Counted from the first letter of the stretch, positions 13,199-48,905 are shown. The stretch: 64,000 nt of DNA from Candidatus Tanganyikabacteria bacterium (GCA_016867235.1 VGJY01000001.1:4038-68037), one strand, 5' to 3'. The notes: generated by a model not told the origin, from the letters alone. Numbers and translations: made by a program.

Positions 13199-13495
13199 CT
13201 ACTTCTTCTCGGGTGCGGGCTTCTCGGGGGGCACGGGCGGCTTCTTGAGGGCCTGCTTGAGGAGGGCGCCGGCGCTCGGGACGGCCGACGTGGACTTCGC
13301 GGCGGCGGCGGCGGCCTGGGCGGCGCGTTCGTTCTCGGCCTTGATCTCGAGGTAGATTTCCTGCCGGTACACCGGGATGTCGCGCGGCGCCTTCAGGCCG
13401 ATCTTGACCGAGTCGCCCTTGATCTCGAGGACCACGACCTCGATGTCCTCGCCGATCATGATCGACTGGTTCGTCTTGCGGCTAAGAACTAGCAA
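13199..13495 (-). CDS. csrA: Carbon storage regulator CsrA (flagellar, FliW-partnered) with a ~25-aa Ala/Pro/Lys-rich C-terminal extension
   Basis: [48 protein letters not shown] is canonical CsrA; lies directly downstream of fliW. Confidence 0.9.
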
Positions 13496-13539
13496 TGAAT
13501 GGTCTCCCGGCCTCTGCGATCGTAATCAGTATAGCGGGG

Positions 13540-14001
13540 TCAGACGGTGACCGGGGGAGTCTGCGACGCGATGGTCTCGTCCGAGATCAGGCGGGCGCGG
13601 ACCGGGTAGCCCGAATCGTGCAGGACCAGTTGCTTGCCCAGGCGGGTGACCGGATTGATGACAAGCGGACCCAGCAAGTTGGCCGTCATGGCCGCGGGAT
13701 CCTCGGGGATGGTGACCAGTGCGAGTACCAGCGGTTCTTCGCCCTTGGCCAGTTGCAGGGCCTGGCGATCCTCGCCGCCGAGCGAGACCCGGTAATCCGG
13801 GAAGAAGAGCAGCGGATCGATGACCGTGAACGCCAAGGCGGGATCGTCGATAGGCTGGAACCACCGCAGCGGCGCCACTTCGTCCTGGTCTATCAGGAGG
13901 TAGCGCGTGAAATTCTCGAAGCCCAGGATGCCTCCCGCAAACGTCAGGAGGGCGGACTCCTCGAATTCGAGGGTGCCGAACTGTTGAGTTTCGATGTTCA
14001 C
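13540..14001 (-). CDS. fliW: Flagellar assembly factor FliW
   Basis: FliW family similarity (FGTLEFEE..LLTF..GILGFE...YLLI); position between flgL and csrA. Confidence 0.85.
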   Translation of the reverse strand: MNIETQQFGTLEFEESALLTFAGGILGFENFTRYLLIDQDEVAPLRWFQPIDDPALAFTVIDPLLFFPDYRVSLGGEDRQALQLAKGEEPLVLALVTIPEDPAAMTANLLGPLVINPVTRLGKQLVLHDSGYPVRARLISDETIASQTPPVTV

Positions 14002-14011
14002 GGCCTAAGTT

Positions 14012-14917
14012 CTACCTCAGGTAGTCGATCAGCGTTGGTTGGATGACGCGGGAGCCGGCGGCGAGCGAAGCGCGATAGACCGAATCCTGGCGGTTGAGGT
14101 CCGTGATGAGCTTGCTCATGTCGGCATCCTCCGTCTCGCTCTTGAACCTCGAGAGTTCGACGTTTTGATCGGACAAACGCTGCCGGAGCAACTCGAGGCG
14201 CTGGACCTTGCCCCCCACGACGGACTGCTCGGTCAAGAACACCTGCTGGCGCTTGTCGATGACCGGGATCAGATCCTCGATCGCCGCTTGATCGTTGGCC
14301 CGGAGGGCAGCCGAGAGATTGGACATGAGCTGGAAGACGTTGGTCGGGTCTGCGGGATCACTGCCAATGGCCTTGGTCCGCCCGAACACGTCCACTCCCA
14401 AGGTGTTGTATTGTATCGTGACCGCCTTTCCAATGACCAACTGCATCCTGGTCGTATCGGTCGGGTCGGAGGCGTCATCGGGATAGGGTTTGGTGGACGT
14501 GTCGGCCCCGTTGAACAGATAGCGGCCTTCGAAGTCGGAGTTGGCGATGGCGCGCAGGTGGCCGCTCATCTGGTCGATTTCGTTGGCGATGGCGTTGCGC
14601 TCGTCGGAGCTGTTGGTATCCGAAGCGGCGCGCACGGCCAGTTCGCGCACGCGTTGCAGCACTTCGTTGCCCTCGCTGATGGCCTTGTCGGTGGTGTTCA
14701 GCCACGTGATGGCGAACTCGGCGTTCTTCTTGAGCTGATCGCCCACGTCGATGGCCGAGCGCAATGTGAGCGCCTGCGAGAAGCGCACGGGCGCGTCGGT
14801 GGGCTTGTTGATGTCTCGCCCGGTCGACAGTTTCTCCTGGATCGCCAGCATGGCCGAGAGGTTGCGATTGAGGTTGAACAGCGTGGTGTTCGACAGGATG
14901 CTCTGCGTGACGCGCAA
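14012..14917 (-). CDS. flgL: Flagellar hook-associated protein 3 FlgL
   Basis: N-terminal flagellin-like MRVTQSILSNTTLFNLNRNLSAM and a C-terminal flagellin domain. Confidence 0.85.
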   Translation of the reverse strand: MRVTQSILSNTTLFNLNRNLSAMLAIQEKLSTGRDINKPTDAPVRFSQALTLRSAIDVGDQLKKNAEFAITWLNTTDKAISEGNEVLQRVRELAVRAASDTNSSDERNAIANEIDQMSGHLRAIANSDFEGRYLFNGADTSTKPYPDDASDPTDTTRMQLVIGKAVTIQYNTLGVDVFGRTKAIGSDPADPTNVFQLMSNLSAALRANDQAAIEDLIPVIDKRQQVFLTEQSVVGGKVQRLELLRQRLSDQNVELSRFKSETEDADMSKLITDLNRQDSVYRASLAAGSRVIQPTLIDYLR

Positions 14918-14923
14918 GACGCG

Positions 14924-16483
14924 TTACCTCCCCACGGTACCCATCTGGTTGATCACGCGATCGAGCAGGCCGTCGAACGTGTTGATCATGCGTGCCGAGG
15001 CCGCGTACGTGTGCTGGAACTTGATCATGTTGGCCATCTCTTCGTCGAGATTGACGCCCTGTACCGTCTGGCGCAGGTTGTCCACGTGCTCGAGGAGGGC
15101 CTTCTGGTTGTCCAGCAGTTTCTTGGACGTCTGGCCCTGCACGCCCAGGCTCGTCAGCACGTTGCGGTAGAAGTCTTCGGCGGTGAACTTGCCGGCCGTG
15201 ACGGCCGAGGCGATCGTGCCGTCCGTGACGAGCTTGAACTGGAGCTGCGAGATGGCCAGGGCCGTGCCGTTGTCGCCCTTGGGCGGCCAGGTCTCGGAGC
15301 CCGGGGCCCCGCCTGGCGCCCGGCCGGCGGCGATCAGGTCGAGGGCGGCGCCGCCGTTGGCCGAGAATACCGGATTGAGCGACATGTTCGAGGCGTTGAT
15401 GATGGTGGCGTTGAACTGCGACGCGACGCCCTTGCTGGAGTCGATCGTGAAGAAGTCCGGGCCGTAGCCGGGCTGGAGCGTGCTGCCGGCGCGGTGCAGG
15501 TCGTTGACCGAGGTGGCGAGCTTGTTGGCCAGCACATCGAGCTGGTACGCCAGGCCGCCGGGCGTGTTTGGCTGGATCGAGCCGGGCGGCACGACCGGCC
15601 GGCCGATCACCTTGTCGCGCATGTCGAAGAGGCCCTTGAAGATCCCGCCCATGTACGCCGGCGGGATGGGCTCCTTGTCGTAGGCGACCGAGTTGAAGGA
15701 AAGCTCGCCGTTGTTGACCAGCTCCAGCTTCTGGGCCTTGTCGCCCTGCACGACGGCCTTGCCGAAGATGAAGACCCACGTGGTGCCGTCGGAACGCTGG
15801 CTCTGCTCAAGGCGAGTATAGCGGCTCAGCTTGTCGAGAAGCAGGTCGCGCTGGTCCATCAGGTTGTTTGGCTGGACGTTGGCGCCGAGCGCCGCCGAGA
15901 TCTGGGCGTTGAGCTGGGCGAGCTGGTCGATCATCCCGTTGACGTCCTTGACCGCCGCGCCGATGCGATCGTCGATGTCCTCGCGGAGCTTGAGCAGGCC
16001 GGAGCCGATTTCGTTGAAGCGGTTGGTCATCGCCGTGCCGGTCTCGCGGAGATTCGCGCGGGCCGCGGCCTCGGTCGGGCGCTTGGAAACTTCGTTCCAG
16101 GCCTCCCAGTACTTGCTCATCAGCTTCTGGAGGCCGGTATCGGAGGGTTCGTTGAACAGGCCCTCGATCTGGTTCATGATCCCCGAAAACGTGTCCTGCT
16201 CGCCGTACTTCACCGTGACGTCGCGGAACTGCTGGTCGAGGAACTGGTCGCGGACGCGGGTCACCATCTCGACGTCGACGCCGCTCCCGAGCGAGGACTT
16301 CGTCGGGTCGGCCTGCAGCGTGAGGGGGAACGCCGAACTGGCCGCGGCGACCTTCACGGTCTGCCGCGAGAAGCCTTCGGTATTGGCGTTCGCGATGTCG
16401 TGGCCGGCGGTGTTGATGGCGTTCTGCGCCGCCCACAGGCCGCGCGTGGATAGATTGATGCCGGCGAAATTGAGATCGGCCAG
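14924..16483 (-). CDS. flgK: Flagellar hook-associated protein 1 FlgK
   Basis: C-terminus GVNLDEEMANMIKFQHTYAASARMINTFDGLLDRVIN is typical. The conserved N-terminus (ADLNFAGINLSTRGLWAAQNAINTAGHDIANANTEGFSRQ, aligning to B. subtilis FlgK residues 5-40) lies in frame upstream of the first ATG/GTG/TTG (16357). 5' end is therefore set at CTG 16481-16483, which sits 8 nt after a GGGGAGGG Shine-Dalgarno. Confidence 0.8.
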   Translation of the reverse strand: MADLNFAGINLSTRGLWAAQNAINTAGHDIANANTEGFSRQTVKVAAASSAFPLTLQADPTKSSLGSGVDVEMVTRVRDQFLDQQFRDVTVKYGEQDTFSGIMNQIEGLFNEPSDTGLQKLMSKYWEAWNEVSKRPTEAAARANLRETGTAMTNRFNEIGSGLLKLREDIDDRIGAAVKDVNGMIDQLAQLNAQISAALGANVQPNNLMDQRDLLLDKLSRYTRLEQSQRSDGTTWVFIFGKAVVQGDKAQKLELVNNGELSFNSVAYDKEPIPPAYMGGIFKGLFDMRDKVIGRPVVPPGSIQPNTPGGLAYQLDVLANKLATSVNDLHRAGSTLQPGYGPDFFTIDSSKGVASQFNATIINASNMSLNPVFSANGGAALDLIAAGRAPGGAPGSETWPPKGDNGTALAISQLQFKLVTDGTIASAVTAGKFTAEDFYRNVLTSLGVQGQTSKKLLDNQKALLEHVDNLRQTVQGVNLDEEMANMIKFQHTYAASARMINTFDGLLDRVINQMGTVGR

Positions 16484-16531
16484 GGTCTGGTGCCCTCCCC
16501 GTCACTCCCCCGAGTGCTGGTTTCCTGGATG

Positions 16532-17038
16532 CTAGGCGGTCCGGTTCAGGAGTACGCTACCGGACTTCGCGGGGCCCTCCTGTTCGGGCCCGTATAACAT
16601 ATCGGCAAGCCGCTCCTCTGGGTTGAGGATGCTCCCGATGACTTCCATCGAGTATTTGACGAATTCGAGGGACGTCGAAAGCAGGAGTTCGCAACGCTCG
16701 TTGCCCTCGCGCAGGCGCGCGGCCCGCTCCAGGAGCGCTTCGCGCAGCTTGGCGAGGCGTACCCGGGACGCCGCGGGGAGCCGATCGATGATGTCGGACA
16801 GCGGCGCGCCGGTCGGCAAGCCGATCTCGGCTGCGAGCTCCGCGGATGCGACGGCGCGGTCGCGCTCGAAGGCGCGCAACTTCTGCTGCTCTTCGGCTTC
16901 CCTGGCCAGGAAGCGCTCGAGAGAGGCGACCTGCCCGCGCTTGATGAGCGCCAGCTTGAGCGGAAGCCGGGTCAAAAACGCCGAGTAGCCCTTGGCCTCC
17001 GCCTCGAGGATCGACTCCAGGCGGGTCGTGTCGGCCAT
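16532..17038 (-). CDS. flgN: Flagellar chaperone FlgN family protein
   Basis: Size, coiled-coil character and position between flgM and flgK. Confidence 0.7.
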   Translation of the reverse strand: MADTTRLESILEAEAKGYSAFLTRLPLKLALIKRGQVASLERFLAREAEEQQKLRAFERDRAVASAELAAEIGLPTGAPLSDIIDRLPAASRVRLAKLREALLERAARLREGNERCELLLSTSLEFVKYSMEVIGSILNPEERLADMLYGPEQEGPAKSGSVLLNRTA

Positions 17039-17041
17039 GGG

Positions 17042-17356
17042 CTACTTTCTCAGGTCGTCGATGTCGAGTTGCTCGGCACCGCGTTCGATGATGGCGTTGG
17101 CGACCGACTCGCCGGTTGGTTTGTAGGTTCCCTTTTCGACGGCCTCGCGCAGCTGAGCCACCTTCTCGGCCCGGGTCGCAGGACCCGCCTTGATGGCGGC
17201 GCCGAAGACTTTCAGAGCCTCTGCCGGCCCGGAAAGTTCGACATTGACGGCAGCATCGGCGGCTTTAGGTGGTGCCTTGACCGCCTCGGCTTCCTTCTTC
17301 CGCTGTGTCGCGGCCACATCGCTCGTCTGAGCGATCAGACGCGGATCGATTCTCAC
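17042..17356 (-). CDS. flgM: Anti-sigma-28 factor FlgM
   Basis: 104 aa; conserved C-terminal FlgM region (KVAQLREAVEKGTYKPTGESVANAII); GTG start; sigma-28 promoter upstream. Confidence 0.75.
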   Translation of the reverse strand: MRIDPRLIAQTSDVAATQRKKEAEAVKAPPKAADAAVNVELSGPAEALKVFGAAIKAGPATRAEKVAQLREAVEKGTYKPTGESVANAIIERGAEQLDIDDLRK

Positions 17357-17401
17357 GGTGTATCACCCCGATTTCACTTGGGATGCCCTGTCCCAATCAT
17401 C

Positions 17402-17429
17402 CTATCGGCTCCGATTCTCCGGAACTTTA
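17402..17429 (-). promoter_or_regulatory. Sigma-28 (FliA) class III flagellar promoter: TAAAGTTC-N12-GCCGATAG
   Basis: The minus strand reads TAAAGTTCcggagaatcggaGCCGATAG, ending 46 nt upstream of the flgM GTG; matches the TAAAGTTT-N11-GCCGATAA consensus. Confidence 0.55.
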
Positions 17430-17471
17430 GGGCCAATCCGCGAGGGCATCTCGGCAGGATGCGCGGTAACT

Positions 17472-17852
17472 TTAATGCCTGGCCTCCCGCTTTGGGGCCG
17501 GTGCGGGATCGCCGGCGCCATCGGCCGGCTCCCGCTCGCCGGTCAGCTCCTCGACCATCTTCTCGAAGCAATCCTGGCAGAACTCGCCGTGCTCGGGCGG
17601 CTTGCCGCAGCGGATGCACCTGAGCAGCTGGCGATTGAGGTGCTCGAACGCGACGTACTTGCCATGCTTGAGGAACCCCCGGACCTCCTTGGCGCCGAGA
17701 CCCAGGGCGCGCTCGATCTCCTCCAGGGTGGCCTCATGGTTCTCCGACAGGAACTGGAAAAGTTTCACGTAGGTTTCACGACAAGGCGCGCAAAGCTTTT
17801 CGGGGCCGACCTGGTTGAACGCGCGTTCGCAGTTTCGGCAGTTGACGAGCAC
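17472..17852 (-). CDS. Flagellar operon zinc-ribbon protein, TIGR03826 / YvyF-like
   Basis: CxxC...CxxC zinc-ribbon pairs (CRNCERAF, CAPCRE, CIRCGKPPEHGEFCQDC); position immediately upstream of flgM as in B. subtilis yvyF. Confidence 0.65.
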   Translation of the reverse strand: MLVNCRNCERAFNQVGPEKLCAPCRETYVKLFQFLSENHEATLEEIERALGLGAKEVRGFLKHGKYVAFEHLNRQLLRCIRCGKPPEHGEFCQDCFEKMVEELTGEREPADGAGDPAPAPKREARH

Positions 17853-17867
17853 GTCGCCCTCCGCGGC

Positions 17868-18293
17868 CTACCTGGCGTACTTGTCGCTCCGCAGCTCGTG
17901 GCCGAACTCGGTCCGGCGCCCCTGTTGCTGCGGCGCATCCTCGGCCTCGCCGCCCTGCGGCGCCAGGGCGTCGCCGATGCCGCCCATGACCGCTCCGGCG
18001 CACCGCTTGCATAGCCGACCGCGGTCGATCTCGGCCCCGCACTTCTCGCAAGTCCAGCGCACGTCGGAGTTGCCGGTCATCAGGCGCCCGGTGCGAAACC
18101 ATTCCAGGATGAGGCTTTCCTTGACCTGGGTCTGCTCGGAGATCACCGACACCTGGGTCTTCGGATTGTCGCGCAGAAACTGGTAGACCTTCTCGAACTG
18201 CGCGTCCTCGATGTCCTGGCAGTCGCGGCAAATCTTGACATTGGGGAGCTTGTTGAAGGTCTTGCCGCAGCGCGGGCAATTGGACAACGCCAT
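17868..18293 (-). CDS. Second TIGR03826 / YvyF-like flagellar operon zinc-ribbon protein (tandem paralog)
   Basis: MALSNCPRCGKTFNKLPNVKICRDCQDIEDAQFEKVYQFLRDNP parallels the downstream paralog (VNCRNCERAFNQVGPEKLCAPCRETYVKLFQFLSEN). Confidence 0.65.
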   Translation of the reverse strand: MALSNCPRCGKTFNKLPNVKICRDCQDIEDAQFEKVYQFLRDNPKTQVSVISEQTQVKESLILEWFRTGRLMTGNSDVRWTCEKCGAEIDRGRLCKRCAGAVMGGIGDALAPQGGEAEDAPQQQGRRTEFGHELRSDKYAR

Positions 18294-19595: not shown

Positions 19596-20375
19596 CTACG
19601 CGGGCCTGGCGATGTCGTTGACGGCGCGGCCCAGGGTCTCGTCCAGCGTGGTCATCGTGCGCTGGGACGCCTCGTAGGTGCGCAGGGCGCTGATCATGTT
19701 GACCATCTCGGTGATCGGGCTGGCCGACGACATCTCGAGGAACCCCTGGTGGACCGTGAAGTTCCTGGATGTGAAGACGGGGATGCCCGGCCCCGGGACG
19801 TAGTAGTTGGCCCCCTGCTTCTTGAGCTGGTTCATCGGGTCGGGGACGGTCACGATGCGGAGCTTGTCGATTTCCTGCGTGCCCGCGATGACGGTGCCGT
19901 CATCCGAGATGGTGAGCCTGCCGCGGTCGGGGAGGAGGATCTCGCCGGCTCGGCCCAGGACGGGGTTGCCCTCGCCGTCCACCAGGCGGCGCTGCGGGTC
20001 CACATGGAACTCGCCGTTGCGCGAAAGTACCTCGTTGCCCTGGCGATCGCGGATGACGAAGAAGCCGTCCCCGCGGAGGGCGAGGTCGCTCGGGTTGTCG
20101 GTGTCCTTGAGATCGCCCTGGGAGTGCGCCGCGCTGATCTGGTCGACCATCGCGTCGATGTAGATCGTGCCCAGACTGTTGATCATGGCCGGGGCACCGA
20201 GGCCGGGCACCGCGGGCTGCATCTTGAGCATGTGCATCGGCGTACGGGCGCGGAACAGCGCCAGGTCGCGCTTGAACCCCACGGTGTTCAGGTTGGCCAG
20301 GTTGTTGGAAATGACATCCTGCTGCGCCATCTGGGTCACCATGGCCGAAGCGGACGTATAGATCCCGCGGATCAA
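19596..20375 (-). CDS. flgF: Flagellar basal-body rod protein FlgF (FlgG paralog)
   Basis: Rod-protein N- and C-terminal conserved domains (GIYTSASAMVTQMAQQDVISNNLANLNTVGFK ... VNMISALRTYEASQ). Confidence 0.75.
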   Translation of the reverse strand: MIRGIYTSASAMVTQMAQQDVISNNLANLNTVGFKRDLALFRARTPMHMLKMQPAVPGLGAPAMINSLGTIYIDAMVDQISAAHSQGDLKDTDNPSDLALRGDGFFVIRDRQGNEVLSRNGEFHVDPQRRLVDGEGNPVLGRAGEILLPDRGRLTISDDGTVIAGTQEIDKLRIVTVPDPMNQLKKQGANYYVPGPGIPVFTSRNFTVHQGFLEMSSASPITEMVNMISALRTYEASQRTMTTLDETLGRAVNDIARPA

Positions 20376-42518: not shown

Positions 42519-42686
42519 GGGCTCGCCTAGCCACCGCCGTCTGTCGAGGTCGGAGCGGGGCCTGGCATCCAGGGGATTCGACGCTGCATCCGACAGTCTG
42601 AAACTTTGCTCGCAAGCAATCCGGTCTAAGATGCATTAGCCAGCCAGGTCGGGTTGGTTGGCCTTGAGAGACAGGCGGGACTCGAA

Positions 42687-45600
42687 ATGTCGCATGCATC
42701 CCGGAATGCTCGGCGCGCGCGTTTTCTGGCAATCGGCGCCGCGATCGCCGCGGTCGGCCTGGCGGCCGGCCTCGCCCTCTGGAGTCCCCACGGGACGGCG
42801 GCTCCCACCCCCGGCAAATCGCCCGAAGTGCACCTCAAGCTCGACGATCGCTGGAAGCTGGTAGACAAGCTCATCGAGGAGCAGAAGTTCGAGGCGGCGG
42901 CCAAGGAGGTCCGGGGCATCCTGACCGCGGCCAAGGCGACCGGGGACCAGGCGCAGTGGACCCGCGCGCTGATCCGCGAGGTGCAGTTGCGCATGGGGTT
43001 GCACGGCTACGAGACCGCCGTCCGTTTCCTCAAGGAAGAGCCGTGGCCCGAGGCGCCGTTGCACCGGACGACGCTGAACCTGTTCTACGGCCACGCGCTC
43101 GTGCAGTACGCGCAGGCCTATGCATGGGAAATCGGCAAGCGCGAACGCGTCGCCGCCGCGGGGCCGGTGGACCTCAAGAAGTGGACCCGGGAACAGATAC
43201 ACGACGCGGCGGCGGCGGCATACGCCCACGCGTGGCGGGATCGGGTCGCGCTGGGGCGCGAGCCTGTGGGGCGGCTGGCCGAATACCTCTCGCCAAACGA
43301 CTATCCGGCCGGCATCCGCGGGACCTTGCGCGATGCGGTCACCTACCTGTTCGTCGAGTTGCTGGCGAACTCGGGCGGGTGGACGCCCGAGCAGGCAAAC
43401 GACCTGTTCAGGCTGCCGCTCGCCGACCTCATCGCCGGCGACCCGGGCAAGTCGGCGGCAATCGACCCCGCCAACCCCGCGGTGCATCCGCTCCTGCGCG
43501 TCGGGGCGCTCCTCGACGATCTCGAGAGCTGGCACCGCGAGCGGCGGAGCGCCGAAGGTGCCCTGGAGGCGCGGCTCGAGCGCTTGCGCCGGCTGCACGC
43601 CGCTTTCGATCTGCCCGCCGACCGCGAGCGGATCACCGGGCACCTGCGCCAACGCCTGCCGGCGTTCCGGGGCGTGCCGTGGTGGAGCATGGGCATGGCG
43701 ACGCTCGCCGAGTTCGTGCAGGCCGAACCGGTCGCCGATAACCTGGTGCGGGCCAGGCAGATCGCGATCGAGGGCCAGCGAGCCTACCCCGATTCGGTCG
43801 GCGGGCAGCGCGCCAACCACATCGCCCGGCGCATCGAGGCGCCCGACTTCCAGGTGACGGCCATGGCGGCCGACGGGCCCGGTCGGCGGAGTGTGCTGGT
43901 CAGCCACCGCAATCTGCCCGAGTTGCACTTCCGGGCGTATCCGGTCGATTTCGAGGCGCGCCTGGCCAGGACCGTGGAGAGCGGCCTCCTGCCGAGCTAC
44001 CGCGATCTCGAGCAGATCGTCCGGGGGCAGAAGCCCGCGCACGCCTGGCGGGTGAAGCTCCCCGCGACGCCCGACTTCAAGGACCATCGCACCTTCGTCA
44101 CGCCGCCCATGGCCAGCCCGGGCGTGTATGTGGTGGCCGCCTCGGCGCGCGCGGATTTCGGCTCCGGGGACAACCGGGTGATGGCGGTCAACGTCAACGT
44201 CACGGACCTGGTCATGCTGTCCCGGGAAGACGGTGAGGGCGGTTTGGCGGTCACCGTGCTGTCGGGCCGGACGGGCAAGCCGGTCGCCGGGGCGACCGTG
44301 TCCCTGTACCGCTACTCCTGGCGCAAGCCGCCAGAGCGCATGCGCCGCGACCGCACCGGTGAGGACGGCGAGGCGGCCTTCCCGTGGCAGTCGCGGGAAG
44401 ATGTCGGCGAGTCGAAGTTCCTGGTGGGGCGGCTGGGAGAGCACCTGGCGCTCGACCAGAGCTATTTCTCGCTCTACAAGCCTTCGGCTCCCACCGAGTC
44501 GGATGCCGCGCTGATCTACACGGATCGGAGCATCTACCGGCCCGAGCAGGAAGTGCGCTTCAAGATCGTGGCGTTCCGCGGCCGCGGCGACCAGGCCCGG
44601 TACCGCACGCTGCCGGGCCGCGACCTGCGGGTGTCGCTCTACGACGCCAACGGCCAGGAGGTGGACGGGAAGAAGGTCCGTACCAATCGCTACGGCACGG
44701 CTTCCGGCATTTTCCGCGTACCGGCCGGCCGCGCGCTCGGCCAGTGGCATGTCGCCACGTCGGTCGGCGGCTCGCAGTACGTGCGCGTCGAGGAGTACAA
44801 GCGGCCGACTTTCGAGGTCAAGCTCGAGGATCCCGAGGCCGCGTTGCGGCTCAACAAGCCGGCGACGGTGGCGGGCACGGCGCGCTACTACTTCGGCCTG
44901 CCGGTCACTGCCGGGAGCGTGCGCTGGCGCGTCACGCGCGAACCGGTGTATCCCTGGTGGTGGGACTGGGACTGGTGGGGAGCGGGCCAGGGGCGGTCCG
45001 GGGCGCAGGCCATCGCCGGGGGCACGGCGACGCTGGGCGCGGACGGCAAGTTCAAGTTCACCTTCACGCCCGAGGCGGACGAGCGCGCGGCCAAGGGCCT
45101 GTCATACCGGTACGCGGTGGCGGCCGACGTGACCGACGAGGGCGGCGAGACGCGATCCGCCGACCGGGCCTTCCGGCTCGGCACGGTGGCGATCGAGGCC
45201 GCATTTCGCACCGACGCGGCCTTCTTCCGGCCCGACGCCACCGGCGCGATCGTCGTCACCCGCACCGATCTGGACGGCGTTCCGCGGGCGGGAAAGGGCT
45301 CCTGGCGCCTGATCGCCCTGCGGCAGCCCGCCGCGGCGACATTGCCCGCCGACATGTCCCGCACGGCCGGTCCCGCGGCCGACGGGTCCGAGCAGGCGGG
45401 CGACACCGAGGAGGCGGACGGCGAGGCCGATCCGGACGAGCCGGGCGAGACCTCGGCCGGACCGGGTGCGCCGCTGACCAAGGGCGACCGGTTGCGAGCG
45501 CGCTGGGAGACGGGCTACGGCGCCGAGGCCGCGTTGCGGCGCTGGGCGGATGAAAAGCAGCTTTCCCGGGGCGACCTGGCGCACGGCGCCGACGGCGAGG

Positions 45601-48600
45601 CCCGGGTGGCGATCGAGGGCCTGGCGCCCGGCGCCTACCGCCTCCGCTACCGCACCGAAGATCCGTACGGCGCGACCTTCGAGGCGGCCAGGGAATTCGT
45701 GGTCGCGGGCGCGCCGATGGCCCTGCCGGCCGTGCTCATGGCCGAGCATTCCGCCGTGCCCGTCGGCGGCACGGCGCGGATCCTGGTGGCTTCGGGGCTC
45801 CCGGACCAGGTCCTGCTCTTCGATCTCTACAAGGCGGGCAAGCTCGTGCGCCGGCAGCGGCTGGCTTCCGGCCGCGAACGGCACGTCGTCGAGATCCCCG
45901 TGGGCGAGGGGGACCGCGGCGGCTTCGGCGTGAAGCTGACGGTCCTGCGCGATCACCAGCTCATGACCTTGACGCAGGCGGTCTTCGTCCCGTGGGACGA
46001 TAAGCAGCTCCAGGTGTCGTTCTCGACTTTCCGCGACAAGCTCCGGCCGGGCGGGCGCGAGACATGGAAGGTTACGGTCAAGGGGCCGAAGGGCGCGCCG
46101 GTGGAAGCCGGCGGGGCCGAACTGCTGGCCTACATGTACGACCGCAGCCTCGACCTCTTCGCACCCCACGCGCCCGCCGACCCCCTGGCCCTTTACCCCA
46201 ACCGCACGGGCGTTTCATGGGCGCGGGCCAGCCTGGGGAGCGTGTCGCCGCAGTGGCTCTGGAGCGATTTCGCCGGGTTGCCCTACTACCCGTCGCTCTC
46301 GGGCGATCGGCTGATCTTCTTCGACAGCTACGGCATCGGCGGCCCGGGGTACCGCCACGGCGGCTACCGGCTGCGATCGGCCATGCCGATGGCGCCGGCC
46401 CCGGCCGGCGCGCCCGCGATGGAGGCGGCCGACCGCATGGAGCAGGCGCCGGCCCGGAAGGCGGAGAGCCGCAGCGACCGGAACGGGGAGGACGAGCGCA
46501 AGTCGACCGAGGGCGACAAGACCAAGGGGTTTGGCGTGGCGTCCGGGCGCGGCCAGGCCGAGGGTCCGCAACCGGCGCCGCTGCGGAGCAACTTCGCCGA
46601 GACGGCTTTCTTCCAGCCCCACCTCGAGGTGGACGAGGACGGCGCCGTCGGCTTCGAGTTCGAGGTGCCCGATTCGGTCACCGCCTGGAACGTGTGGGTC
46701 CACGCGATCACCGCCGACCTGAAGGGCGGCGCGGTGCGCAAGGAGGCCCGGAGCGTCAAGGACCTGATGGTGCGGCCGTACATGCCGCGCTTCCTGCGCG
46801 AGGGGGACAAGGCCGAGTTGCAAGTGGTGGTCAACAACGCCACCGACAAGCCGCTGACCGGCCAGGTGACGCTGGACATCGTCGATCCCGACTCGGGCGC
46901 CAGCATCCTGGGCGAGTTCGGTCTGGCGGGAGCGAAGCCGCTCGCATTCAAAGCCGCCGCCAAGGGATCGGGCAAGGTCTCCTTCCCGATCGCCGCCCCG
47001 AAGCGAGTACGGCCGGCGGCATTCAAGGTGGTGGCCCGGGCGGGCGACGATTCGGACGGCGAACTGCGGCCCCTGCCGGTGCTCCCGGGCCGGATGCATC
47101 TGGCCCAGTCCCGGTTCGTGACGCTGCGCGACGTCGAGAAGCGGGACATGGTCTTCGCGGACATGGCCGCGGCCGGCGCGGATCCGAGCCTGGTGCACGA
47201 CTCGCTCGTCGTCACCGTGGATGCGCAACTCTTCTACCAGGTGCTCGAAGCGTTGCCGTACCTCATCGAGTACCCGTACGAGTGCACCGAGCAGACCATG
47301 AATCGCTTCGTCTCGACGGGCATCGTGTCCTCGGTCTTCGAGCAGTTCCCGGCGATCGGGAAGATGGCGGCCGAGTTCGCGAAACGCGAGACGCAGTACG
47401 CCTCTTGGGCCGACGACGACCCCAACCGCAAGCTGACGCTCGAGGAGTCGCCATGGCTGCGCATCGCCAGGGGCGGCAGCGGCCAGGACAAGGGCCTGGC
47501 GAAGATCCTCGATCCGCGCATCGCGCGGGCCACCCGCGACACCTCTCTGGCCAAGCTCCGGCAGGCGCAACTGCCGTCGGGCGCCTTCCCCTGGTGGGCC
47601 GGCGGCCCGCCGTCGCCCTACATCACGCTCTACCTGATGCACGGCTTCGCCAAGGCGGTCGAGTTCCAGGTGGACGTGCCCAAGGACGTGGTACAGCGCG
47701 GCTGGAACTACCTGGCCGACGAGGTCCGCAGGGACATGCAATGGGCCTTCGCGCACGACTGCTGCTGGGAGTTCTTGACCTTCGTGAACTACGTGGCGAG
47801 CTCGTATCCCGACCAGTCCTGGACCGGCGATGCGCTCACCGCCAAGGAGCGCAAGCAGATACTCGACTTCAGCTTCCGGCACTGGAAGCGCCACTCGCCC
47901 TACCTCAAGGGCTACCTCGCCCTCACGCTCAAGCGCATGGGCAGGCCAGCGGACGCGAAACTGGTCTGGGACGGCGTGATGGATTCCGCGAAGACCACCC
48001 GCGACGAAGGCACCTCGTGGGCGCCCGAGGATCGCGCGTGGCTCTGGTACAACGACACGATCGAGACCCACGCGTACGCCCTGCGGACGCTCATGGAACT
48101 CGAGCCGCGAGACGCCCGGCGCGACGGCATCGTCCAGTGGTTGCTGCTCAACAAGAAGCTCAACCACTGGAAGAGCACCCGCGCGACGGCCGAGGTCATC
48201 TATTCGCTGGTCCACTATCTCAAGGCCGAGAAGCAACTGGGCATCCCGGAGCACCTGGCGGTGCAGGTCGGCCCGCGCTCGCAGGAGTTCCGCTTCGATC
48301 CCGAGAAGTACACGGGCAAGAAGAACCAGGTCGTGGTGCCGGGCGCAGAGGTCGACCCGAAGACCATGCACAAGGTCGTCGTCTCGAAGACGACGAAGGG
48401 CTTCGCCTTCGCCTCGGCGACCTGGCACTATTCCACCGAGAAGCTCCCGGCGGCCGACCGGGGTGATCTGCTCGGCGTCAACCGGAGCTACTTCCGGCGC
48501 GAGCACACGTCCGGAGGGTGGGTGCTGCGGCCATTGCAGGAGGGAACCAAGGTAGCCGTGGGCGACCAGGTGGAAGTGCACCTGTCCATCCGGGCCCGGC

Positions 48601-48905
48601 ATCCGGCCGAGTACGTCCACCTGCGCGATCCGCGGCCGGCGGGCTTCGAGCCAGACTCGCAGCTCTCGAAGTGGAAGTGGGATCTGGGGTTGGCCTGGTA
48701 CGAAGAGATCCGCGACAGCGGGACCAACTTCTTCTTCGAGGCCCTGCCCCAGGGCGAGTACACGCTCAAGTACCGCCTGCGCGCCGCCATGCCCGGCACC
48801 TTCCGGGTCAGCCCGGCAACGCTCCAGTCGATGTACGCCCCCGAGTTCAACGCCTTCTCGGCGGGAACCATCGTCGGCGTCGCCGGGTCGGGAGATCAGC
48901 AATAG
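42687..48905 (+). CDS. Bacterial alpha-2-macroglobulin family protein (~2070 aa) with thioester motif
   Basis: Thioester site EYPYECTEQTM; MG/A2M domain organisation; N-terminal signal/anchor MSHASRNARRARFLAIGAAIAAVGLAAGLALW. Confidence 0.85.
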   Translation: MSHASRNARRARFLAIGAAIAAVGLAAGLALWSPHGTAAPTPGKSPEVHLKLDDRWKLVDKLIEEQKFEAAAKEVRGILTAAKATGDQAQWTRALIREVQLRMGLHGYETAVRFLKEEPWPEAPLHRTTLNLFYGHALVQYAQAYAWEIGKRERVAAAGPVDLKKWTREQIHDAAAAAYAHAWRDRVALGREPVGRLAEYLSPNDYPAGIRGTLRDAVTYLFVELLANSGGWTPEQANDLFRLPLADLIAGDPGKSAAIDPANPAVHPLLRVGALLDDLESWHRERRSAEGALEARLERLRRLHAAFDLPADRERITGHLRQRLPAFRGVPWWSMGMATLAEFVQAEPVADNLVRARQIAIEGQRAYPDSVGGQRANHIARRIEAPDFQVTAMAADGPGRRSVLVSHRNLPELHFRAYPVDFEARLARTVESGLLPSYRDLEQIVRGQKPAHAWRVKLPATPDFKDHRTFVTPPMASPGVYVVAASARADFGSGDNRVMAVNVNVTDLVMLSREDGEGGLAVTVLSGRTGKPVAGATVSLYRYSWRKPPERMRRDRTGEDGEAAFPWQSREDVGESKFLVGRLGEHLALDQSYFSLYKPSAPTESDAALIYTDRSIYRPEQEVRFKIVAFRGRGDQARYRTLPGRDLRVSLYDANGQEVDGKKVRTNRYGTASGIFRVPAGRALGQWHVATSVGGSQYVRVEEYKRPTFEVKLEDPEAALRLNKPATVAGTARYYFGLPVTAGSVRWRVTREPVYPWWWDWDWWGAGQGRSGAQAIAGGTATLGADGKFKFTFTPEADERAAKGLSYRYAVAADVTDEGGETRSADRAFRLGTVAIEAAFRTDAAFFRPDATGAIVVTRTDLDGVPRAGKGSWRLIALRQPAAATLPADMSRTAGPAADGSEQAGDTEEADGEADPDEPGETSAGPGAPLTKGDRLRARWETGYGAEAALRRWADEKQLSRGDLAHGADGEARVAIEGLAPGAYRLRYRTEDPYGATFEAAREFVVAGAPMALPAVLMAEHSAVPVGGTARILVASGLPDQVLLFDLYKAGKLVRRQRLASGRERHVVEIPVGEGDRGGFGVKLTVLRDHQLMTLTQAVFVPWDDKQLQVSFSTFRDKLRPGGRETWKVTVKGPKGAPVEAGGAELLAYMYDRSLDLFAPHAPADPLALYPNRTGVSWARASLGSVSPQWLWSDFAGLPYYPSLSGDRLIFFDSYGIGGPGYRHGGYRLRSAMPMAPAPAGAPAMEAADRMEQAPARKAESRSDRNGEDERKSTEGDKTKGFGVASGRGQAEGPQPAPLRSNFAETAFFQPHLEVDEDGAVGFEFEVPDSVTAWNVWVHAITADLKGGAVRKEARSVKDLMVRPYMPRFLREGDKAELQVVVNNATDKPLTGQVTLDIVDPDSGASILGEFGLAGAKPLAFKAAAKGSGKVSFPIAAPKRVRPAAFKVVARAGDDSDGELRPLPVLPGRMHLAQSRFVTLRDVEKRDMVFADMAAAGADPSLVHDSLVVTVDAQLFYQVLEALPYLIEYPYECTEQTMNRFVSTGIVSSVFEQFPAIGKMAAEFAKRETQYASWADDDPNRKLTLEESPWLRIARGGSGQDKGLAKILDPRIARATRDTSLAKLRQAQLPSGAFPWWAGGPPSPYITLYLMHGFAKAVEFQVDVPKDVVQRGWNYLADEVRRDMQWAFAHDCCWEFLTFVNYVASSYPDQSWTGDALTAKERKQILDFSFRHWKRHSPYLKGYLALTLKRMGRPADAKLVWDGVMDSAKTTRDEGTSWAPEDRAWLWYNDTIETHAYALRTLMELEPRDARRDGIVQWLLLNKKLNHWKSTRATAEVIYSLVHYLKAEKQLGIPEHLAVQVGPRSQEFRFDPEKYTGKKNQVVVPGAEVDPKTMHKVVVSKTTKGFAFASATWHYSTEKLPAADRGDLLGVNRSYFRREHTSGGWVLRPLQEGTKVAVGDQVEVHLSIRARHPAEYVHLRDPRPAGFEPDSQLSKWKWDLGLAWYEEIRDSGTNFFFEALPQGEYTLKYRLRAAMPGTFRVSPATLQSMYAPEFNAFSAGTIVGVAGSGDQQ

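Follow-up and report, generated by a model that had tools for sequence, protein, structure and literature searches.

CTG start codons are rare but already documented in bacteria. The initiator tRNA decodes CUG as fMet far less efficiently than AUG, with a mismatch at the first codon position as for GUG and UUG, and the place of CTG in NCBI translation table 11 rests on plasmid RepA. Among the described cases, rpsL (encoding ribosomal protein S12) has a CTG start that is conserved in Deinococcus-Thermus and has peptide support, and Deide_03051 also starts at CTG (Baudet et al. 2010, PMC2830850). The E. coli plasmid protein RepA uses a CTG start as well (cited in PMC2830850), and the non-canonical starts of infC (ATT/ATA) and pcnB (ATT) serve regulation (PMC2830850). 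Measured with reporters in E. coli, initiation from CUG reaches about 1-2% of the AUG level; constructs of lower expression gave 0.02-3% (bioRxiv 10.1101/063800). Structures indicate that ribosome recognition of the initiator tRNA modulates the discrimination against CUG (PMC11497404).

To these cases we can add flgK of a Candidatus Tanganyikabacteria bacterium as a further conserved example. We analysed a stretch of 64,000 nucleotides, hereafter the window, in which flgK appears intact and functional, with translation most likely starting from the CTG at 16483-16481 of the minus strand and giving a full-length product of 519 aa; we put the probability of this reading at roughly 80%. The Tanganyikabacteria, a freshwater clade, were proposed from Lake Tanganyika metagenome-assembled genomes (MAGs) and placed within or next to Sericytochromatia, a non-photosynthetic cyanobacterial class (PMC8245535).

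Like rpsL in Deinococcus-Thermus, flgK is a chromosomal gene for a conserved protein that lacks a canonical start; in both genes the CTG lies at the position expected from homologs and is conserved in related genomes, and standard gene callers misannotate the N-terminus. The two differ in that rpsL is highly expressed, with peptide evidence and a phylum-wide CTG, whereas flgK encodes a low-copy junction protein and its CTG is seen by comparison in two species. As with RepA, CUG would serve as a bacterial initiator under the direction of a Shine-Dalgarno (SD) sequence. However, RepA is a plasmid replication protein whose low expression is part of copy-number control; a regulatory role of the flgK CTG would be hypothetical. 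The resemblance to infC and pcnB would lie in a near-cognate start retained by selection in a gene needed at a low or controlled level, but the weak codon of infC is the sensor in the IF3 autoregulatory loop, and no such loop is indicated for flgK.

The gene belongs to a late flagellar operon at 13199-18293 on the minus strand, consisting of two copies of yvyF followed by flgM, flgN, flgK, flgL, fliW and csrA. In order and content this operon matches the Firmicute type of B. subtilis, whose gene order we take to be yvyF-flgM-flgN-flgK-flgL-fliW-csrA, with YvyF present twice in the window. The host, in contrast to B. subtilis, belongs to a Sericytochromatia-related lineage with 68% GC. To our knowledge, flgK in Bacillales starts at a canonical codon. 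The main genes around the start under study are as follows.

17868-18293 and 17472-17852, minus strand: yvyF paralogs, late flagellar operon
16532..17038, minus strand: flgN, FlgK/FlgL export chaperone (PF05130), directly upstream of flgK
14924..16483, minus strand: flgK, proposed CDS with CTG start, 519 codons plus stop (translation, Pfam, TIGR02492; identical to MBM3266023.1)
14012..14917, minus strand: flgL (Pfam Flagellin_N), directly downstream of flgK, TTG start with GGAGGT 8 nt upstream
13540-14001, minus strand: fliW, late flagellar operon
13199-13495, minus strand: csrA, late flagellar operon

Non-ATG starts are common in this cluster, namely flgL TTG 14917, fliW GTG 14001, csrA TTG 13495, flgM GTG 17356 and a TTG for the gene at 20375 (all on the minus strand). 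A scan for SD-like motifs gave GGAGGT for flgL, GAGGT for fliW, GGAG for csrA and GGAGG for the gene at 20375. Outside its own lineage, the window FlgK is closest to proteins of Brevibacillus and Paenibacillus (35-37% identity), though the MAG is placed with Sericytochromatia.

The elements that bear on the start of flgK are listed below together with their state in L001, a separate NCBI assembly (GCA_040960315.1) that holds the closest relative, with 82% FlgK amino acid identity.

16487..16516, minus strand: leader block CACTCGGGGGAGTGACGGGGAGGGCACCAG of 30 nt, without a difference between the window and L001, holding a predicted hairpin and the SD
16502..16504, minus strand: in-frame TGA that closes the flgK frame upstream (sequence and translation), out of frame in L001
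16493..16500, minus strand: SD sequence GGGGAGGG, separated from the CTG by 9 nt; L001 has the same motif with a spacer of 7 nt
16481..16483, minus strand: CTG, proposed initiation codon, homologous in position to the starts of relatives
16355..16357, minus strand: GTG, internal Val43, the first codon of canonical start type in the frame, taken as the start by the JGI and Logan/ENA entries (477 aa)

The sequence-only reading that drew attention to this gene had placed the first ATG, GTG or TTG of the flgK frame at 16357 and the upstream closure of the frame at the TGA 16502-16504, and the minus-strand sequence and its translation agree with both. No canonical start (ATG, GTG or TTG) occurs in the flgK frame between the TGA at 16504 and the GTG at 16357; the CTG lies exactly 42 codons before this GTG, and the stretch between them translates as L-ADLNFAGINLSTRGLWAAQNAINTAGHDIANANTEGFSRQT, in agreement with the earlier reading. 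The GTG itself encodes Val43 in L001 too. The same reading had singled out the CTG as the sole plausible initiator, and it is indeed the only near-cognate codon (one base off ATG) between the upstream stop and the conserved N-terminus, in the window as in L001. As for the strong SD claimed before it, the motif GGGGAGGG is present, but the spacer measures 9 nt (10 nt counted from the GGAGG core) rather than 8 nt.

We then asked what the 42 codons encode. The protein read from the CTG matches TIGR02492 (flgK_ends, the NCBIfam FlgK equivalog) from residue 8 to residue 512, against profile positions 2-436 of 437, with 318 bits (cutoff 170.75 bits). The helical domain PF22638 (FlgK_D1) and the C-terminal PF06429 (Flg_bbr_C) score 179.6 and 40.4 bits in FlgK, respectively. 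When the first 60 aa were scanned alone, the rod-type N-terminal motif PF00460 was found at residues 10-38 with 21.6 bits against a cutoff of 20.7, a marginal match that was not reported in the full-length FlgK scan at E<=0.001. In the alignment with the solved Salmonella FlgK chain 9go6_A, query residue 9 pairs with chain residue 5, and with FlgK of Bacillus sp. AFS073361, used instead of B. subtilis, query residue 6 pairs with subject residue 5. Since the TIGR02492, PF00460, Bacillus and 9go6_A matches reach residues 6-10, a protein started at the CTG would have a normal FlgK N-terminus, and one started at GTG 16357 would be without it. These matches bear out the earlier assignment of the 42 codons ahead of the GTG to the FlgK N-terminus. 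In FlgK, this N-terminal segment comprises the D0 helix and the export signal.

For the start codon in relatives, we compared the DNA of every relative with at least 49% FlgK identity and of further loci reached via FlgN. In nine related sequences, the position equivalent to the CTG is occupied by ATG, TTG or GTG. The codons found at the homologous position are as follows.

ATG: L004, L005, L006/L007 and L169
TTG: L002, L003, L008 and L170-L173
GTG: L174
CTG: the window and L001

The homologous start sits two or three codons before a conserved Asp-Leu-Asn-Phe, and all relatives have a GGAGG-type SD upstream of it. Orthologs of flgN precede flgK in all related loci, and the flgN-flgK-flgL order of the window also occurs in L002-L008 and L170. 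L001 carries CTG at the same codon together with an identical GGGGAGGG, and from the flgN TAA to the shared internal GTG, L001 has no canonical start. Comparison of the flgK 5' ends thus places the CTG at the start position of the relatives and shows that L001 shares it. Orthologs beginning at the downstream GTG, which would have spoken for a shorter FlgK in this lineage, were not among them; wherever a relative has a canonical start, it lies at the position of the CTG. The free variation of the relatives among ATG, TTG and GTG speaks against flgK strictly requiring one particular start codon.

Among the relatives compared, CTG is known in two independent sequences only. Scans of genome and metagenome contigs for closer relatives gave nothing above 37% identity, and a protein search with the N-terminal 160 aa of FlgK returned distant partial FlgKs only. 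The FlgN search added relatives of up to 71% identity with ATG, TTG or GTG and no more CTG carriers. The two CTG sequences make up a clade of their own in a neighbour-joining tree of FlgK (no bootstrap), with an ATG/TTG clade as sister and TTG in the outgroup, so a single TTG-to-CTG transition is the simplest history. The CTG would probably have arisen by one T-to-C transition from TTG in the common ancestor of the window organism and L001, and have been kept by both.

The window and L001 flgK genes align over 520 codons without gaps, with an overall divergence of dS ~0.5, which allowed the selection on the two parts of the gene to be compared.

Codons 2-42, window against L001: 13 synonymous and 6 non-synonymous steps, dS 0.62, dN/dS 0.11
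Rest of flgK, window against L001: 116.6 synonymous and 117.4 non-synonymous steps, dS 0.45, dN/dS 0.26

Since dN/dS is 0.11 with 13 synonymous differences, we read codons 2-42 as translated and under strong purifying selection. Across the relatives, the amino acids at positions 2-8 (ADLNFAG) are kept although synonymous codons replace one another; the window and L001 are separated here by a single synonymous change and no non-synonymous one. By the same comparison, the CTG has evidently been retained while the window and L001 diverged substantially.

A rival reading places initiation at another non-canonical codon downstream of the CTG. The other in-frame near-cognates are ATC (codon 9, 16459-16457) and ACG (codon 13), either of which would give a FlgK 8-12 residues shorter. 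AUC is about as weak an initiator as CUG in E. coli (bioRxiv 10.1101/063800), and the ATC is kept in all relatives, though it encodes a conserved Ile there. Both codons lie at least 33 nt from the SD, however; for ATC the distance is 33 nt, too far for SD-directed placement, and there is no nearer SD-like motif. The conservation of residues 2-8 as protein, with synonymous codon variation, also speaks against an ATC or ACG start, and it is the CTG, not ATC or ACG, that is homologous to the canonical starts of relatives. We consider initiation at either of these codons improbable.

The sequence-only reading had left the choice between CTG initiation and a sequence error. In the latter case, the contig would carry a mistake of sequencing or assembly, or a variant from a minority strain, in place of a true TTG, ATG or GTG at 16481-16483. 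The window is a metagenome-assembled contig, and a single T-to-C change from TTG would yield the observed CTG; exact look-ups of the 477-aa product for an independent assembly of the window flgK locus gave no match. But the CTG and its context recur in L001, a different species-level sequence from a different assembly (dS ~0.5). With this rare codon found again in a second species and a separate assembly, an error is very unlikely, and of the two options CTG initiation is favoured.

If the true start were GTG 16357, FlgK would be truncated and the 42 codons upstream untranslated. This GTG is the first canonical start codon and is used in the JGI and Logan/ENA entries. An SD scan found no SD upstream of it, however, and the 41 codons ahead of it carry the 13 synonymous differences and the dN/dS of 0.11 given above. 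The codons before it also match the beginning of both the full-length FlgK model and the solved chain, and none of the canonical-start relatives begins at the Val43 equivalent. We give this start very little credence.

Loss of the canonical start is one route to gene inactivation, and flgK could be a pseudogene without a start codon in a lineage that is losing motility. Against this, the frame is intact over its 520 codons with zero indels relative to L001, the neighbouring flagellar genes are intact, and dN/dS values of 0.11 (N-terminus) and 0.26 (rest of the gene), with dS ~0.5, point to selection that continued after the CTG arose, which makes decay of the gene hardly credible. Taken together, a translated, constrained frame and a CTG kept through divergence argue against both the pseudogene and the downstream GTG.

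Least probable of all is recoding, by a start at the out-of-frame GTG (16505) plus a frameshift or by readthrough of the flgN stop to a FlgN-FlgK fusion. In its favour, the window has a GTG 22 nt ahead of the CTG, and the flgN stop shares the frame of flgK in both the window and L001. But the GTG and CTG are 20 nt apart in L001, which would call for a different shift, readthrough in the window would cross two stops (TAG and TGA), the linker frame differs between the window and L001 with linker lengths of 39 to ~120 nt in relatives, and GTG 16505 overlaps its only SD-like motif with zero spacer. The change in frame follows from the 2-nt indel between SD and CTG (spacer of 9 nt in the window, 7 nt in L001), which also puts the window TGA out of frame in L001. 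Because of this indel, we exclude coding upstream of the CTG on comparative grounds, and neither a conserved frameshift nor a FlgN-FlgK readthrough is tenable.

With initiation at the CTG as the preferred reading, we turned to the leader. The flgN stop TAG lies at 16534-16532 on the minus strand, leaving a 48-nt spacer to the CTG. A hairpin, CACUC-GGGG-GAGUG (16516-16503), is predicted within the leader block in both the MFE and centroid folds. The block is identical at 30 of 30 positions between the window and L001 while synonymous sites differ at pS 0.34-0.42, which suggests that the flgK leader block is constrained. The 106-nt flgK leader is less stable than its shuffles (z +2.07). We considered whether an open initiation region compensates for the weak codon and rejected the idea, as structure (-35..+36 window) and predicted accessibility showed no difference between the CTG sequences and the ATG, TTG or GTG relatives. 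No Rfam match was found in the window flgK leader at E<=1.

The ATG and TTG relatives have a longer flgN-flgK leader of about 85-120 nt (spacers at L002:2879-2965, L004:2911-3000, L005:2923-3015, L169:1457-1545 and L170:3005-3092). In these longer leaders, a conserved CGGGGGAGGAC motif directly follows the flgN stop and precedes two hairpins, for which compensatory changes at three pairs give support. Of these features, only the first G-rich motif and the SD remain in the window and L001, and both hairpins are absent. The window flgK leader (16487-16516) contains two GGA-containing G-rich motifs, GGGGGAG and GGGGAGGG, the latter being the SD. Such a pair of motifs is reminiscent of CsrA targets with their two-site layout, and the operon itself includes csrA and fliW; CsrA control of flgK translation would be possible.

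As for the mechanism, the SD GGGGAGGG 9 nt upstream would position the ribosome on the CTG in ordinary SD-directed initiation. The initiator tRNA would pair with CUG and give an N-terminus of (f)Met-Ala-Asp-Leu-Asn-Phe, so that the N-terminal peptide from the CTG start would read (M)ADLNFAGINLSTR. The one organism with systematic measurements shows CUG to be a very weak initiator, and we found no compensating feature at flgK. Since the FlgK junction needs only ~11 subunits per flagellum, a weak CUG start is plausibly tolerable for this protein. The flgK start site shows ATG, TTG, GTG and CTG among relatives, and such free turnover would fit a weak constraint on start strength for very low-copy proteins. 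The gene thereby adds a comparative example of a CTG start that persisted through substantial divergence, without a new mechanism. It is also conceivable, although we think it unlikely, that the CTG was selected as a throttle, through a very low FlgK level, re-initiation after flgN or a leader-bound regulator. If so, the start codon would be a control point in the flagellar assembly of non-photosynthetic cyanobacterial relatives.

The CTG start matters mainly for annotation, and the correct start already stands in the NCBI record. The 90% cluster of the window FlgK consists of three entries, all from one 72,715-bp contig. NCBI MBM3266023.1, named FlgK of a Candidatus Sericytochromatia / Candidatus Tanganyikabacteria MAG, has 519 aa, begins MADLNF, which corresponds to the CTG start, and is identical to the proposed FlgK. 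The JGI and Logan/ENA entries have 477 aa and begin at GTG 16357. The expectation that automated callers would truncate FlgK by about 42 residues therefore holds for JGI and Logan/ENA but not for NCBI. In the JGI and Logan/ENA entries, the 42 residues are lost in both CTG-bearing species, and these sources also misplace the start of several relatives despite a good TTG there. What is missing is the N-terminal helix with the export-signal region, so structure prediction, domain calls and the inference of motility in a poorly known lineage could all be misled by such truncated models. Among the relatives, the gene calls P0007 and P0008 begin at an internal ATG (MRGL...) despite a homologous TTG with SD, and P0004 probably begins five codons too early, at an ATG abutting the SD. 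The start regions of the miscalled relatives lie at L002:2965-3001, L008:1025-1064 and L005:3001-3018.

Finally, we looked at the rest of the window. A heuristic scan of ~50 coding frames found no other window gene in which a coding-like GC3 signature ahead of the first canonical start goes together with a near-cognate codon and an SD at proper spacing; only flgK stood out, and we rejected a genome-wide habit of non-canonical starts on this heuristic basis. No tRNA gene, and with it no unusual initiator tRNA, was found within the window. An 804-aa antisense frame at 14039-16453 on the plus strand, running across flgL and flgK, was set aside as a high-GC artefact, as its GC1 of 0.91 and GC3 of 0.60 mirror the real genes. 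Elsewhere in the window, a very long open frame of ~2,090 codons at 42630-48905 on the plus strand has a strong coding signature (GC3 0.91).
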